A stretch of DNA of 64,000 bases, from positions 156,054,001-156,118,000 of the forward strand of contig NC_090326.1 of assembly GCF_035084215.1 (NCBI RefSeq). The letters are read 5' to 3'. The notes under the pieces are model-generated. The model worked only from the letters and a program-made list of their open reading frames with translations. It made no database searches and was not told where the DNA came from. This document shows positions 3,040 through 39,054 of the stretch, piece by piece. A program made the position numbers and the translations under genes. The stretch comes from Heptranchias perlo (lineage: Eukaryota). Each line of letters begins with the position of its first letter. Position 1 is the first letter of the stretch.

Positions 3040-5338
3040 TTTTTTTTTTTATTCGTTCATGGGATGTGGGCATCGCTGGCGAGGCCGGCATTTATTGCCC
3101 ATCCCTAATTGCCCTTGAGAAGGTGGTGGTGAGCCCCCTTCTTGAACCGCTGCAGTCCGTGTGATGAAGGTTCTCCCGCAGTGCTGTTTGGAAGGGAGTT
3201 CCAGGATTTTGACCGAGAGACGATGAAGGAACGGCGATATATTTCCAGGTCGGGATGGTGTGTTACTTGGAGGGGAACGTGCAGGTGGTGGTGTTCCCAT
3301 GCGCCTGCTGCCCTTGTTCTTTTAGGTGGTAGAGGTTGCGGGTTTGGGAGGTGCTGTCGAAGAAGACCTGGCGAGTTGCTGCAGTGCATCCTGTGGATGG
3401 TACACACTGTAGCCACATTGTGCCAGTGGTGAAGGGAGTGAATGTTTAGGGCGGTGGATGGGGTACCAATCAAGCAGGCTGCTTTGTCCTGGTTGGTGTC
3501 AAGTTTCTTGAGTGTTGTTGGAGCTGCACTCATCCAGGCAAGTGAAGAGTATTCCATCACACTCCTGACTTGTGCCTTGTAGATGGTGGAAAGGCTTTGG
3601 GGAGTCAGGAGGTGAGTCACTCGCCGCAGAATAACCAGCCTTTGACCTGCTCTTGTAGCCACAGTATTTATGTGGCTGGTCCAGTTAAGTTTCTGGTCAA
3701 TGGTGACCCCCAGGATGTTGATGGTGGGGGATTTGGCGATGGTAATGCCGTTGAATGTCAAGGGGAGGTGGTTAGACTCTCTCTTGTTGGAGATGGTCAT
3801 TGGCTGGCACTTGTCTGGCGCGAATGTTACTTGCCACTTATCAGCCCAAGCCTGGATGTTGTCCAGGTCTTGCTGTATGCGGGCATGGACTGCTTCATTA
3901 TCTGAGGGGTTGCGATTGGAACTGAACACTGTGCAATCATCAGCGCACATCCCCATTTCTGACTTTATGATGGAGGGAAGGTTATTGATGAAGCAGCTGA
4001 AGATGGTTGGGCCTAGGACACTGCCCTGAGGCACTCCTGCAGTAATGTCCTGGGGCTGAGATGATTGGCCTCCAACAACCACTACCATCTTCCTTTGTGC
4101 GAGGTATGACTCCAGCCACTGGAGAGTTTTCCCCCTGATTCCCATTGACTTCAATTTTACCAGGGCTCCTTGGTGCCACACTCGGTCAAATGCTGCCTTG
4201 ATATCAAGTGCAGTTACTCTGTCCTCACCTCTGGAATTCAACTCTTTTGTCCATGTTTGGACCAAGGCTGTAATGAAGTCTGGAGCTGAGTGGTCCTGGC
4301 GGCACCCAAATTGAGCATCGGTGAGCAGATTATTGGTGAGTAAGTGCCGCTTGATAGCACTGTCGACGACACCTTCCATCACTTTGCTGATGATTGAGAG
4401 TAGACTGATGGGGCGGTAATTGGCCGGATTGGATTTGTCCTGCTTTTTGTGAACAAGGCATGCCTGGGCAATTTTCCACATTGTTGGGTAGATGCCAGTG
4501 TTGTAGCTGGAACAGTTTGGCTAGCGGTGCGGATAGTTCTGGAGCACAAGTCTTCAGCAGTAAAGCTGGGGTGTTGTTGGGGCCCATAGCCTTTGCTGTA
4601 TCCAGTGCACTCAGCCGTTTCTTGATATCACGTGGAGTGAATCGAATTGGCTGAAGACTGGCTTCCGTGATGGTGGGGATATCGGGAGGAGGCTGAGATG
4701 GATAACCCACTCGGCACTTCTGGCTGAAGATGGCTGAACTCATGTGCTGGACTCTGCCATCATTGAGGATGGGGATGTTTGCAGAGCCTCCTTCTCCCGT
4801 TAGATGTTTAATAGTCCACCACCATTCACGACTGGGTGTGGCAGGACTGCAGAGCTTTGATCTGATCCATTGTGGAATCGCTTAGCTCTGTCTATAGCAT
4901 GTTGCTTCTGCTGTTTAGCATGCATGTAGTCCTGAGTTGTAGCTTCACCAGGTTGGCACCTCATTTTTCGGTACGCCTGGTGCTGCTCCTGGCATGCTCT
5001 TCTACCCTCCTCATTGAACTAAGGTTGATCCCCTGGCTTGTTGGTAATGGTAGATTGAGGAATATGCTGGGCCATGAGGTTACAGATTGTGCTGGAATAG
5101 AAATCTGCTGCTGCCGATGGCCCACAGCGCCTCATGGATGCCCAGTTTTGAGCTGCTAGATCTGTTCTGAATCTATCCCATTTAGCACTGTGGTAGTGCC
5201 ACACAACAGATTGGATGGTGTCCTCAGTGTGAAGATGTGACTTTGTCTCCACAAGGACTGTGCGGTGGTCACTCCTTCCAATACTGTCATGAACAGATGC
5301 ATCTGCGCCAGGTAGATTGGTGAGGATGAGGTCAAGTA
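3040..5338 (-). mobile_element. LINE family B (CR1/L2-group non-LTR retrotransposon), APE-RT, poly(A) tail; interrupted at 5338, resumes at 10150
   Basis: Poly(A) at 3040-3050; RT ORF 3105-4481; APE motifs DLILTN...SDH in ORF 5019-5357; frameshift near 4500. Confidence 0.92.
3105..4481 (-). pseudogene. LINE family B reverse transcriptase (disrupted ORF2)
   Basis: NYRPISLLS, QFG, LDIKAAFDRV, GVPQGSVLGP, CADD (variant of the Y/FADD motif). Confidence 0.9.
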
Positions 5339-5540: not shown

Positions 5541-6977
5541 TCATGTCCAATTTCCTGCCCGCTCCCCATAACCCCTAATTCCCTTTACTTCTAGGAAACT
5601 GTCTGTTTCTGTTTTAAATTTATCTAATGATGTAGCTTCCACAGCTTCCTGGGGCAGCAAATTCCACAGACCTACCACCCTCTGAATGAAGAAGTTTCTC
5701 CTCATCTCAGTTTTGAAAGAGCAGCCCCTTATTCTAAGATTATGCCCCCTACTTCTAGTTTCACCCATCTTTGGGAACAACCTTAGCGCATCCACCCGAT
5801 CAAGCCCCTTCACAATTTTATATGTTTCAATAAGATCGCCTCTCATTCTTCTGAACTCCAATGAGTAGAGTCCCAATCTACTCAACCTCTCCTCATATGT
5901 CCACCCCCTCATCCCCGGGATTAACCGAGTGAACCTTCTTTGTACTGCCTCGAGAGCAAGTATGTCTTTTCTTAAGTGTGGACACCAAAACTGTATGCAG
6001 TATTCCAGGTGCGGTCTCACCAATACCTTATATAACTGCAGGAATACCTCCCTGTTTTTATATTCTATCCCCCTAGCAATAAAAGCCAACATTCCGTTGG
6101 CCTTCTTGATCACCTGCTGCACCTGCATACTAACTTTTTGATTTTCTTGCACTAGGACCCCCAGATCCCTTTGTACTGCAGTACTTTCCAGTTTCTCACC
6201 ATTAAGATAATAACTTGCTCTCTGATTTTTCCTGCCAAAGTGCATAACCTCACATTTTCCAATATTATATTGCATCTGCCAAATCTCTGCCCACTCACCC
6301 AGCCTGTCTATATCCCCTTGTAGGTTTTTTATGTCCTCCTCACTCTCTACTTTCCCTCCCATCTTTGTATCATCTGCAAATTTTGATATGTTGCACTCGG
6401 TCCCCTCCTCCAAATCGTTAATATAGATTGTAAAGAGTTGGGGACCCAGCACCGACCCCTGTGGAACACCACTGGTTACTGGTTGCCAGTCCGAGAATGA
6501 ACCATTTATCCCAACTCTCTGCTTCCTGTTAGATAACCAATCCTCCACCCATGCCAGAATATTGCCCCCAATCCCGTGATTTTTTATCTTAAGCAATAAT
6601 CTTTTATGTGGCACCTTGTCGAATGCCTTCTGGAAGTCCAAATACACTACGTCCACTGGTTCCCCTTTATCCACCCTGTACGTTATGTCCTCAAAGAACT
6701 CAAGCAAATTTGTCAGACATGACTTCCCTTTCATAAAGCCATGCTGACTTTGTCCTATTAAATTATGCTTATCTAAATGTTCCGTTACTGTCTCCTTGAT
6801 AATAGACTCCAAAATTTTACCCACCACAGATGTTAGGCTAACTGGTCTATAATTTCCAGCCTTCTGCCTACTACCCTTTTTAAATAACGGTGTTACATTA
6901 GCAGTTTTCCAATCTGCCGGGACCTTTCCTGAGTCCAGGGAATTTTGGAAAATTATTACCAAAGCATCCACAATCAT
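5541..6977 (-). pseudogene. CR1-A ORF2, RT and C-terminal domain (open 478-aa segment)
   Basis: GNYRPVSLTS, QHGF, YLDFQKAFDKV, GVPQGSVLGP, FADD, RPHLEY, RRNFF. Confidence 0.95.
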
Positions 6978-8480
6978 ACTGCCACTTCCCTCAAGACCCT
7001 GGGATGTAAGCCATCAGGTCCAGGGGATTTATCCGCTTTGAGTCCCATTATTTTACTGAGTACCAATTCCTTAGTGATTTTATTCGTATTTGGCTCCTCC
7101 CCCCCCCCCCCCTAGAGCCCCTGTTTGTCCAGTGTTGGGATATTCTTAGTGTTCTTTACCGTAAAGACTGAAACAAAATATTTGTTCAGCATTTTTGCCA
7201 TCTCCATGTTTCCCACCATTAATTTCCTGGTCTCGTCCTCTAAGGGACCTACGTTTGCCTTAGCCACCCTTTTTCTTTTTATATAACTATAGAAACTCTT
7301 GCTATCTTTTTTATATTTTTTGCTAATTTCTTTTCATAATCTAACTTCCCTTTCTTAATCAATCCTTTAGTTCCTTTTTGCTGTCTTTTGAAGACTTCCC
7401 AATCTTCTATCCTCCCACTAAGTTTGGCTACCTTATATGTCCTTGTTTTTAGTTTGATACTATCCTTAATTTCTTTACTTAGCCACGGATGGCGGTCATT
7501 TCTTTTACACCCTTTTTTCCTCAGTGGAATATATTTATTTTGAAAGTTGTAAAATAACTCCTTAACTGAACCACTGCTCATGTACCGTCTTACTCTTTAA
7601 TCTATTTTCCCAGTCCACTTTAATCAATTCCGCTCTCATACCATCATGGTCTCCTTTATTCAAGCTCAGTACGCTTGTTTGAGAATCAACCTTCTCACCC
7701 TCTAATTGGATATGGAATTCAACCATGTTGTGGTCACTCATTCCAAGGGGATCCTTAACTAGGACATTATTAATTAATCCTGACTCATTACACAGGACCA
7801 GGTCCAAGGTTGCTTGCCCCCTTGTAGGATCAGTTACATACTGCTCAAGAAATCCATCCCTAATGCACTCAATGAACTCTTCCTCAAGGCTGCCCTGCCC
7901 AATTTGATTTGTCCAGTTAATATGATAGTTAAAATCCCCCATAAGTATAGCTGTTCCCTTGTTACATGCCCTGACTATTTCCTGATTAATACTTCTTCCA
8001 GCAGAGTTGCAACTATTAGGAGGCCTATATTCTACGCCCACTATTGTTTTTTCCCCTTATTATTCCTTATCTCTACCCAAACTGTTTCATTATCTTGATC
8101 CTTTGTCCCAATATCATTTCTCTGTATTAGTGATTCCTTCCTTTATTAACATAGCCACCCCACCTCCCCTTCCTTCCTGCCTGTCCTTCCTGATTGTTAA
8201 ATACCCTGGCATATTTAATTCCCAGTCGTTGTCACCCTGCAGCCATGTTTCTGTAACGGCCACAAGATCATACCCATACGTAGTTATTTGTGCCGTTAAC
8301 TCGTCCATTTTGTTACGAATGCTACGTGCATTCAGATAAAGAACTTTCAAATCTGTTTTGTGACACTTAGTTGCTGCTTTTTCCTTTTTTAACACTATAC
8401 CTATTACTCTATACCTTCTGTCCCTTCCTGATACGCTTTCCTCTGTCTCCCTGCTCAGGTTCCCAACCCCCTGCCACTTT
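6978..8480 (-). pseudogene. CR1-A ORF2 apurinic endonuclease domain and linker, frameshifted
   Basis: YLNARS, VTETWL, RGGGVA (ORF 8114-8647); MGDFN, LDLVL, SDH (ORF 7562-8041); PWLS linker (ORF 7279-7581). Confidence 0.9.
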
Positions 8481-9429
8481 AGTTTAAACCCTCCCCAACA
8501 GCACGAGCAAACACTCCCCCTAGGACAGCGGTCCCGGCCCTGCCCAGGTGCAGACCGTCCGGTTTGTACTGGTCCCACCTCCCTCAGAACCGGTTCCAGT
8601 GTCCCAGGAATTTGAATCCCTCCCCCTTGCACCATTCCTCTCGCCACGTATTCATTTGAAATATCCTCCTATTTCTACTCTGACTAGCACGTGGCACTGG
8701 TAGCAATCCTGAGATTACTACCTTTGAGGTCCTATTTTTAAATTTACCTCCTAACTCCCTATATTCTGCTTTTAGGACCTCATCCCCTTTTTTACCGAAA
8801 TCGTTGGTGCCTATGTGCACCACGACAGCTGGCTGTTCGCCCTCATCCTCCAAAATGTTCTGTAGCTGCTCCGAGACGTCCTTGATCCTTGCACCAGGGA
8901 GGCAACACACCATCCTGGAGTCTCGGTTGCGGCCGCAGAAACGCCTGTCTATTCCCCTTACAATTGAGTCCCCTATCACTATAGCTCTTCCACTCTTTTT
9001 CCTCCCAGCCTGTGCAGCAGAGCCACCCGTGGTGCCAGGAAGTTGGCTGCTGCTGCCTTCCCCTGATAAGTCATCCCCCCCAACAGCATCCAAAGTGGTA
9101 TATCTGTTTGAGAGGGGGATGGCCACAGGGGACCCCTGCACTACCTGCCTGCACCTCTTATTCTTCCTGGTGGTCACCCATTCACTTCCTGCCTGTATAC
9201 CCTTTACCTCCGGTGTGACCAACTCGCTAAACGTGCTATCCACGAGTTTCTCTGCATCGCGGATGCTCCACAGTGAATCCACCCGCAGCTCCAGCTCCGA
9301 GATACGATCGGTCAGTAGCTGCAGGTGGACACACTTCCTGCACACATGGTCGGCAGGGACACTGGTCGTGTCCATGACTTCCCACATCTTGCAGGAGGGG
9401 CATATCACGGGTGCGAGGTCTGCTGCCAT
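8479..9429 (-). pseudogene. CR1-A ORF1: zinc finger, coiled coil and SGNH/GDSL esterase; premature TGA at 8584-8586
   Basis: CPSC...CRKC; IGDS, LPGA and GTND blocks. Reading through the stop gives GRWDQYKPDGLHL...GLN* ending at 8479, which restores the DxxH block. Confidence 0.9.
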
Positions 9430-9703
9430 GACTTGCCTTAGCTTAGTTACCCCTTTTAAATTACGTTGAAATTAGAAAATGTTAACTATACTAGGGACCT
9501 AGGCTCACTAAAAAAAAAAACACTGCCTGCTATAAAACCTGCAGATCTTCCCTTTCTTATTACTTTACTTACAGTAAAATGGTAGAAATACTCACCTGAA
9601 CCTACTCACCAATCAGCTGCCTCCCCTGTGCCGCGTCAATTTCTGACTGGTGACATCACCCCGAACTCTGCCGCTGGTCTCAGAGTCTCGCTCTCAGAGT
9701 AAG

Positions 9704-17100: not shown

Positions 17101-17380
17101 TCACTGCAGAAGGAACAGCGGGGCGAGTATCTTGTCGGCACCGCTGCGGCTCGAGCTGCGAGATACGCCCCCTTGAACTGGACTCTCCGAGCAGAGGAAA
17201 TAGGGTTTGCAGAGAGAAACTATCAACTCCTTTTAATCATCAGAAACACCTCAAAGTAATGGGTGGTCTTGTCCGATGTTTTTTTTTTCCCCCCCATTTG
17301 GTTTCTGTCAGTGTGGCTGCATGAGACGTATGCGATGGGAGCTGGCTGTCGGAGACCAATATAAAGGCCTAATAAGAAAT

Positions 17381-17561
17381 GATGTGGAGATGCCGGTGAT
17401 GGACTGGGGTTGACAATTGTAAACAATTTTACAACACCAAGTTATAGTCCAGCAATTTTATTTTAAATTCACAAGCTGACGAAGGAGGAAGCCTCCGAAA
17501 GCTTGTGAATTTAAAATAAAATTGCTGGACTATAACTTGGTGTTGTAAAATTGTTTACAAT
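17381..17561 (+). mobile_element. Penelope-like mini-element P1: 34-bp tail plus perfect 63-bp inverted repeat; 11-bp TSD
   Basis: Arms 17415-17477 and 17500-17562 are exact reverse complements; TAATAAGAAAT at 17370-17380 and 17562-17572. Confidence 0.85.
17476..17508 (+). ncRNA. Minimal hammerhead ribozyme core (stem I partner missing)
   Basis: CTGACGA-A-GGAGG-AAG-CCTCC-GAAA-GC-TT-GTGA. Confidence 0.7.
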
Positions 17562-17896
17562 TAATAAGAAATACAAATAGAGCATTGACTTTTGAAATAG
17601 TCAACGTGCACAATGCAAAAACCTGCTTGTAATTCAGTACTTATTGGACACTGACTTAAGTAAGTACAATTTTTCAGCTGTTTGTGCGGAAAAACGTTGG
17701 GAGAATTTTCCCTCTTGTCCTCCATCCTCACCCCACAACCAGCTTTCGTATGAGGTGTGACTTCCTCCGCTGAACACTACCTTCTTTCAGCAAACGACAG
17801 AAATTATTTGATCCTTGGCGTTCTCATTTTCTTGTGGATGCATTTCCTGTTGTTTTCTTGCGGGGCAGGGTTTTAGGTTCTTGCCCCAGTGGGACC

Positions 17897-37913: not shown

Positions 37914-38066
37914 TAAAATAAAAACAGAAAATGCTGGAAAACACGCAGCGGGTCAGGCAGTATGTGTAGAGAGAAACGAGTTAATGTTTCAGGTCGATGA
38001 CCGTTCATCAGAACTGCCCCAGACTTTCAAGATTTCAGATTTCCAGCATCCGCTGTATTCTGCTTT
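37914..38066 (-). mobile_element. Penelope-like mini-element Q3 with hammerhead core and inverted tail; 9-bp TSD
   Basis: TTGTTTTAA at 37905-37913 and 38067-38075; minus strand reads AGTT-CTGATGA-AC-GGTC-ATC-GACC-T-GAAA-CA-TT-AACT. Confidence 0.8.
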
Positions 38067-38362
38067 TTGTTTTAACTACTTTTTATTGTTTGATAAGCCC
38101 AGATGATTGGTTAACATCCAACTCATCAACACATCAGTCTTGTGAAGGAATCTGTAATTGGACACCGGTGGCCATGAACCCATTTGTCTGTTGAGTCCCT
38201 TTGTGGAGGAGCACACGGTTAGGGAGCATGAACCCACTAAATAGTCCTAATGTTACTTTCCAGAAATCGCTAATGACAATGATCAACTCACTCAACTGAC
38301 TGTTCTTCTCTCTCTTCTCATTTAACACATTTTCTAAACCAAGTATTCCTGTGTTTTAAAAG

Positions 38363-38576
38363 TAGCCATGATGTGGAGATGCTGGTGATGGACTGGGGTG
38401 GACAAATGTAAGGAATCTTACAACACCAGGTTATAGTCCAACAGTTTTATTTGAAAATCAAAAGCTTTCGGAGCTTTCCTCCTTCCTCACCTGACGAAGG
38501 AGGTAAGCTCCGAAAGCTTGTGATTTTCAAATAAAACTGTTGGACTATAACCTGGTGTTGTAAGATTCCTTACATT
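38363..38576 (+). mobile_element. Penelope-like mini-element P2: 39-bp tail plus 88-bp inverted repeat (3 mismatches); 13-bp TSD
   Basis: Arms 38402-38489 and 38492-38579; TGTGTTTTAAAAG at 38350-38362 and 38577-38589. Confidence 0.85.
38487..38523 (+). ncRNA. Complete minimal type I hammerhead ribozyme motif
   Basis: TCAC-CTGACGA-A-GGAG-GTAAG-CTCC-GAAA-GC-TT-GTGA: stem I TCAC/GTGA, stem II GGAG/CTCC, palindromic AAGCTT in place of stem III. Confidence 0.75.
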
Positions 38577-39054
38577 TGTGTTTTAAAAGGATAATGAGGT
38601 ACCTCATAGCTCAGCTGTGATGCTCCCCGTGTCAAATAGCCTGCTGACACTCATTGCCTAGGCTAATGGATGCAGAATGGGTAATGGACAGAGGTACTTG
38701 GGGGGAGGGGGGGAGGGGGGGGGGCGGGGTGGGTGCTGCTGCTGGCAACCTTAAAGAAAGAAAGAAGAAAGAGCTGGTTTCACCAACAGGAGGGAGAAGG
38801 CAAATGGACCGTGGTGGCAACAACACTCGGGGCTCAAATTATGCCTTTGTCACAAAAGCACCGGAAGGGGAGAGGGCCTTCTGAATCAGTGCAGCATCTC
38901 TTCAGTGAGTCTGGATGCCTTGATGTTGTAGATTTCTACTTGCCTTTCCACATTTCCAGTATGACTAAAGAGCAGCCACAGCCCTAATAACAACCGTCGC
39001 AGTGCGCAAGCCTGTGAATTCACCACTCCGCTGAGCTAATGTGATGCTCACAAA

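Follow-up and report, generated by a model that had tools for sequence, protein, structure and literature searches.

Structure of the fold-back insertion

The window, that is the whole 64,000 nt stretch of Heptranchias perlo DNA that was analysed (contig NC_090326.1; positions count from its first letter), contains a 217 nt element built of two 88 nt arms (38402-38489 and 38492-38579) that face each other across a 2 nt centre with 85 of 88 paired identities and 3 mismatches; a 39 nt tail (38363-38401) adjoins the left arm. The element is flanked by a perfect 13 bp target-site duplication (TSD), TGTGTTTTAAAAG, at 38350-38362 and 38577-38589, the first 3 nt of its right copy overlapping the end of the right arm. 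An earlier note on this DNA had described the 88 bp arms, the 2 nt loop and the TSD, and all three are confirmed; the tail was missing from that description. The predicted fold has an energy of -148 kcal/mol (z = -21), a stability reached by 0 of 200 shuffles.

Table 1. Positions of the focal fold-back's features and of its sister copies P1 and P3 in the window (pLTR stands for pseudo-LTR and PLE for Penelope-like element)
Feature	Position	Strand	Remark
Left target-site duplication, 13 bp	38350..38362	+	13 bp is the modal TSD length (13/30 sister loci)
PLE 'tail', 39 nt, left arm only, including the ATG that starts the ORF (38369-38367, minus)	38363..38401	-	Same sequence runs into MATIDTTNC... 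ORFs in loci L039, L043, L116, L117
Left arm: pLTR copy, 5'-truncated at hammerhead U4, C3 replaced by G	38402..38489	-	
TCA-CC-TGA mini-palindrome at junction	38487..38494	.	741 genome-wide loci with the same junction type; control pattern 0
Minimal type I hammerhead, intact core, extra A after A9, 1 bp stem III, palindromic AAGCUU; predicted cut after 38519	38487..38523	+	Fits the minimal hammerhead description in PMC4209133 (partial text)
Right arm: pLTR copy without a tail; its end falls in the upstream of the two arm-end clusters	38492..38579	+	
AATAAA, candidate poly(A) signal in the arm, likewise masked by the fold-back	38530..38535	+	Found in nearly all arms
6 bp terminal hairpin TGTAAG/CTTACA adjoining the tail-less end	38559..38574	+	TGTAAA/TTTACA, compensated, in the other main subfamily
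Right target-site duplication	38577..38589	+	
P1, a fold-back sister copy from a different subfamily, its arms meeting at the AAGCT palindrome of the hammerhead	17379..17562	.	
P3, solo tailed arm, 12 bp TSD	52345..52480	+	CpG-type G12A change

On the plus strand the hammerhead reads, in order, stem I TCAC, core CTGACGA, an extra A, stem II GGAG and CTCC on either side of a GTAAG loop, GAAA, GC, TT and GTGA, with a stem III of one base pair around a 2 nt palindromic loop. Every part of a type I minimal hammerhead (core CUGAnGA...GAAA.UH, an extra base after A9, stems I and II, a palindromic vestigial stem III) is present here, so that the earlier reading of a complete minimal motif stands, in what appears from its letters to be the dimer-type minimal form and not a self-sufficient monomer. 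The minus-strand copy does lack its first C, as had been proposed: G occupies C3, stem I carries one further change at 38461, and this copy falls outside the minimal hammerhead definition. Stem variants between subfamilies stay paired (e.g. GGGG/CCCC, TTTAC/GTAAA). An Rfam scan gave no hammerhead family match at E<=1; a miRNA model and a scaRNA model were matched weakly, and nothing else. Antisense to the hammerhead start (38486-38494, minus), at the hairpin apex of the focal fold-back, lies CAG/GTGAG, which resembles the consensus 5' splice donor. Hammerhead dimer cleavage is reportedly the subject of a paper by Luense et al. With metazoan PLE minimal hammerheads (PMC4209133, partial text) the focal motif shares the conserved core, an extra base between 9 and 10.1, G10.1-C11.1 and a palindromic 15.2-16.2/loop 3; its stem II has 4 Watson-Crick bp against 7-8 bp in the Schistosoma type.

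Of the two sister copies in the window, P1 is itself a fold-back, with an intact core on its tail-less arm, unlike the solo P3, in which GAAA is altered to AAAA. The focal copy does belong to a subfamily distinct from both (85-88% identity), but the compensated stems attributed to it are not found in hammerhead stem II, which is the same in the focal copy, P1 and P3; the compensated pair, G-C to A-T, sits instead in the terminal hairpin, where it separates one main subfamily (88 arms) from the other (81 arms). By analogy with the stem-loop start of reverse transcription (RT) in PMC11167929 (partial text), this hairpin is a possible RT start signal. A 36 nt piece of the same pLTR family occurs at 62340-62375, and another dispersed repeat, with 20 nt imperfect inverted ends (37921-37940 and 38040-38059) and heavy coverage by contigs from sequencing runs, occupies 37916-38067. 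LINE-like ORF fragments, presumably CR1-like and L2-like by their resemblance, lie on both strands at 3105-4520, 5541-7013, 7562-9471 and other places, and about half of the 204 kb region around the focal element is repeat-masked. Contigs of four low-share sequencing runs covered repeats and did not cover the unique flanks of the focal element.

A stub of a Penelope-like element

Searching the animal's own genome (3.25 Gb) with the focal element yielded 881 candidate places, of which all 40 that were scored match nearly the full query, and four exact subfamily patterns count 33,931, 4,626, 9,441 and 15,959 arms (63,957 in all). The junction pattern TCA-CC/GG-TGA recurs throughout the genome (Table 1), 12 of the first 50 junction loci listed being of the focal type by hand count; TSD length in 30 sister loci peaks at the focal value, with no TSD found at 1 locus. 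At 6 of 30 loci chosen by the 39 nt extension of the arm, an ORF starting MATIDTTNC follows the tail. Sister copies elsewhere in the genome, though not the focal stub, contain a 902 aa ORF continuous with the tail, which matches RVT_1 (40.5 bits, cut-off 29.6), shows a DKG motif by eye, and has a C-terminal GIY-YIG match (PF01541; E=3.7e-4, 21.2 bits) slightly under the Pfam cut-off of 22.6. Atlas matches of this ORF stand at 0.96-0.97, one set having GIY-YIG in 31% of its members. Tandem pLTRs flank the ORF at four loci (L116, L118, L119, L120), each with two same-strand copies ~3 kb apart. The focal copy itself has the layout of an endonuclease-bearing (EN+) PLE, namely an inverted 5'-truncated pLTR, a one-sided 39 nt tail and a 13 bp TSD. 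Because the tail is continuous with an ORF encoding RT and GIY-YIG domains, the focal element is almost certainly a 5' pLTR stub of an EN+ PLE; its layout and motifs suggest membership of the Penelope/Poseidon clade. Separately, in contig C1:4435533-4467206 runs of arms recur at a spacing of ~3.08 kb, as would be expected of full-length PLE units in tandem.

EN+ insertion units of the Penelope/Poseidon clade combine a pLTR, an adjacent inverted 5'-truncated pLTR, a 30-40 bp tail and a TSD, as drawn in the scheme of PMC8557442 (inverted pLTR, tail, TSD) and as described for Pen2a_Av in PMC3846280 (partial text), which reports an inverted pLTR, a 31 bp tail, a TSD, TATA plus Inr, and junction palindromes. 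The tail is equally a described feature (PMC8557442; PMC11167929, partial text). Like these units, the Heptranchias family has head-to-head arms, a tail on one arm, a TSD, a junction palindrome and a TATA/Inr-like motif, with an ORF start at the pLTR end and an RT plus GIY-YIG ORF in long copies; unlike them, the focal copy has no ORF body, both of its arms being pLTR stubs, and the modal TSD is 13 bp as against 8-10 bp in the rotifer PLE examples. Inverted pLTR, tail, TSD and junction palindrome together are an already published PLE insertion pattern, and the earlier suggestion of an undescribed system is not borne out. The focal locus is ordinary, one of many such stubs.

Arm ends and junctions

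Arm ends were mapped in 1.6 Mb taken regardless of structure (90 arms, 26 two-arm fold-backs). Counted from C3, 42 of the 3' ends lie at +77..+91 and 46 at +118..+129, forming two clusters. In 25 of the 26 two-arm fold-backs a tailed arm is combined with a tail-less one, the exception being a doubtful pair. A wider set of 66 pairs from all loci contains one tail in 62, none by motif in 4 and two tails in 0. At the other end, 45 of the 90 arms start at -19..+1 from C3 and only 5 at +30..+37. In 45 of 110 arms TATAA(A/G) is found at -36..-47, the only place it takes within 70 nt, and of 53 short arms 50 stop 25-46 nt below this motif; the arm 5' ends would fit run-off at a transcription start placed by the TATA-like motif, and between subfamilies arm 5' ends and TATA position are uncorrelated (Spearman 0.10, p 0.47). 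Hammerhead cleavage was rejected as the origin of the arm 5' ends, since the cut lies at +28/+29, yet half of the arms begin near C3. A splice acceptor at that end was not supported either: most of the long-arm subfamilies examined have no AG among the 20 nt that precede C3.

Arms of one copy are nearly identical to each other (34 of 66 pairs identical; mean 1.2 differences vs 7.3 for random pairs) across many subfamilies, indicating that the fold-back is remade at each insertion. An alternative is that the fold-back itself is mobile as one non-autonomous unit, like a MITE or a retrozyme. In its favour are its compact form with a TSD and the single junction type shared by 741 loci; but both arms of a copy change together across many subfamilies, junctions and arm lengths form a continuum (arms range from ~50 nt to >1.5 kb in 1.4 Mb of introns), both outer ends shift by a few nt at two RT start clusters, and the focal locus has no tandem same-strand units, all of which leaves movement as a unit scarcely credible. 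More specifically, a non-LTR retrozyme was rejected because tandem same-strand hammerhead units are absent and the two copies are inverted, one without C3, and a MITE or DNA fold-back element because the ends are asymmetric with a tail, the junctions and arm lengths are variable, and the parent encodes RT.

Probable formation by two primed cDNAs

The head-to-head pLTR copies were probably made in one event in which both nicked strands primed RT, with the hammerhead a passenger and its masking a side effect. Twin priming as the mechanism, read back from its genomic products, is probable. A PLE protein would cut both target strands ~13 nt apart; one DNA end would prime at the downstream RT start to give the tailed arm and the other ~37 nt upstream to give the tail-less arm. 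Both cDNAs would extend toward the RNA 5' end, which would lie a little upstream of the hammerhead and ~30 nt below the TATA box, and would anneal via the TCA-xx-TGA palindrome, the focal mini-palindrome being their likely annealing point; repair would then retain CC on one strand, leaving C3 on only one arm. The hammerhead would travel with the pLTR, and any masking of it by the hairpin in a read-through transcript would be incidental, not a selected switch.

Position of the intact core distinguishes this scheme from self-priming, in which a single cDNA or antisense template would bend back at TCA-GG-TGA and serve as its own template for the second arm. Snap-back of a tailed cDNA predicts an intact core on the tailed arm, which holds at 6 of 15 junction loci; at the other 9, as in the focal copy, the core is intact on the tail-less arm and the tail lies on the arm without C3. 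That division is expected if two cDNAs anneal symmetrically with either strand winning, and a tail-less cDNA would be unable to supply a tail. Self-priming was put forward, on an antisense template, as the favoured model in PMC3846280 (partial text), and it agrees with the palindromic junction and the frequent identity of arms (34/66), but a 3 bp stem with a 2 nt loop would make a poor primer, and chimeric arms exist: 4 of 64 true pairs, two false pairings of separate insertions having been left out of the 66, differ at >=2 common sites, and 15 of 56 arm differences fall on common alleles (chance 9%), one of them in the focal copy. We consider self-priming improbable. Two cross-subfamily head-to-head pairs stand 72 and 754 nt apart; such arm pairs, at contig C1:4023090-4023187 and C1:3868905-3869684, suggest two RNA templates in one insertion.

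In LINE-1 twin priming, two target ends prime on the element RNA and the products join by microhomology, giving an inversion. The LINE-1 cDNAs cover different parts of the RNA, whereas twin-primed cDNAs of the focal PLE would overlap and start at two fixed sites. For Poseidon of Anolis carolinensis in vitro, PMC11167929 (partial text) reports that both target strands are cut and extended, that two RT starts span the tail and that uncleaved RNA serves as template, all shared with the twin-priming reading of the focal copy; the ORF start differs, lying inside the hammerhead in Anolis Poseidon and ~120 nt downstream of C3 in the focal family, and the partial text gives no mechanism for inverted arms. 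A literature search over titles and abstract openings, with subscription papers mostly outside its coverage, returned nothing on Penelope twin priming or on the orientation of Penelope hammerheads in introns.

Predicted masking, core decay and orientation in introns

The predicted pairing probability of stems I/II is 0.96 in the isolated motif (outer pair 0.63), falls to 0.13-0.25 in the solo arm and reaches 0.0 once the whole element is folded, and the energy to free the hammerhead stems is predicted at 37.6 kcal/mol with the left arm vs 0.8 in the solo arm. In silico, then, the upstream antisense arm sequesters the ribozyme as the earlier note had supposed. In the partial text of PMC4209133, which defines the minimal hammerhead and notes hammerhead pairs 100-700 bp apart on opposite strands, a single motif gave no cleavage and dimers low cleavage; the Anolis PLE hammerhead cuts only with PLE protein and is not needed for insertion (PMC11167929, partial text). 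Given both, there is perhaps little to switch off. Inverted Penelope copies have also been linked to siRNAs (PMC3681739, partial text).

The earlier note had cited the lost GAAA of P3 in arguing that the fold-back could be an off switch. One subfamily, with 33,931 arms, has 796 instances of G12A and 892 of its CpG twin C11.1U; since G12A is not above its twin, the catalytic change is not favoured and the P3 loss is ordinary CpG decay, no evidence of selection. An apparent surplus of G12A on the plus strand was put down to chance, the strands standing at 394 vs 402 genome-wide. In a hand tally of 400 listed arms, decay affects 27 of 193 unpaired and 10 of 207 paired arms (p 0.002), but the two CpG positions are hit equally in both classes (12:15 unpaired, 5:5 paired). 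The higher decay of unpaired arms points to age or ascertainment, as this class could include older fold-backs whose partner no longer fits the pattern.

No host gene was found around the focal copy itself: of 210 exon-like candidates in 204 kb around the element, 141 were examined and 0 had Pfam matches, a result still compatible with a long intron or a non-coding gene. ANF_receptor-domain genes form a large cluster in contig C13:3.65-8.74 Mb, probably an array of chemosensory receptors.

Orientation was examined in seven 200 kb stretches (1.4 Mb) between same-strand Laminin-G exon matches on four contigs, each taken to be within a single giant gene, least certainly for C2. They contain 42 insertions (22 fold-backs, 18 solo, 2 tandem), a count that includes the hand split of one solo copy from a fold-back group (41 to 42). 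Unpaired copies number 6 sense, 3 with intact cores, vs 14 antisense, 13 with intact cores (binomial p=0.021 for intact cores, 0.12 for all unpaired copies; core state against orientation, Fisher p=0.061). Leaving out two copies at the sample edge brings the intact cores to 2 vs 12 (p 0.013), with p 0.096 for all unpaired copies and 0.044 for core state. LINE controls in the same DNA lean antisense too (CR1-like 104:128, L2-like 30:40), and against them the intact-core ratio is not significant (p = 0.065 and 0.092). All 20 fold-backs with a hammerhead zone keep an intact sense core, and this small sample leans the way of the earlier note. The antisense splice donor CAG/GTGAG was rejected as a cause of the bias, since the bias it would produce runs the other way.

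The lower number of sense than antisense intact unpaired cores (3 vs 13) is not what a purely neutral by-product would give. It would be predicted by a passive shield with a selective effect, whereby by-product fold-backs are tolerated in introns and unpaired sense copies are purged as their hammerhead or adjacent AATAAA harms the pre-mRNA. Folding predicts the masking that a shield would need, fold-backs show no bias in tail orientation (10 sense, 12-13 antisense), AATAAA survives in all 6 sense unpaired copies, of which 3 lack an intact core, and Xenopus retrozymes are reported as depleted in introns (bioRxiv 10.64898/2026.07.22.740005, partial text). Against this, the sample is small and post hoc, drawn from about four genes with several comparisons; the LINE background absorbs the significance; the fold-back share is alike in introns (22/42) and around the window (7/14); 3 intact sense unpaired cores persist; G12A shows no genome-wide excess over its CpG twin; the greater decay of unpaired arms is equal at both CpG positions; and lone minimal hammerheads are without in vitro cleavage (PMC4209133, partial text). 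The orientation result is a weak hint that leans toward the shield, which we hold to be rather unlikely. Equally doubtful is the broader proposition that twin-primed fold-backs have a built-in mask, that unpaired sense intact copies and not fold-backs are purged from introns, that roughly one in two of the tens of thousands of insertions would be self-silencing, and that minimal PLE hammerheads would cut host pre-mRNA in vivo.

Implications

The Heptranchias PLE family is a good natural data set on how PLEs build inverted ends. Its rule of one tailed and one tail-less arm, its two junction outcomes and the chimeric arms seen now and then speak for two primed cDNAs rather than for self-priming as published. 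With >60,000 arms and an annotated genome, orientation bias could be tested directly in shielded vs unshielded cores, and if the 3:13 signal held, it would be rare in vivo evidence of PLE minimal hammerhead activity on host RNA.
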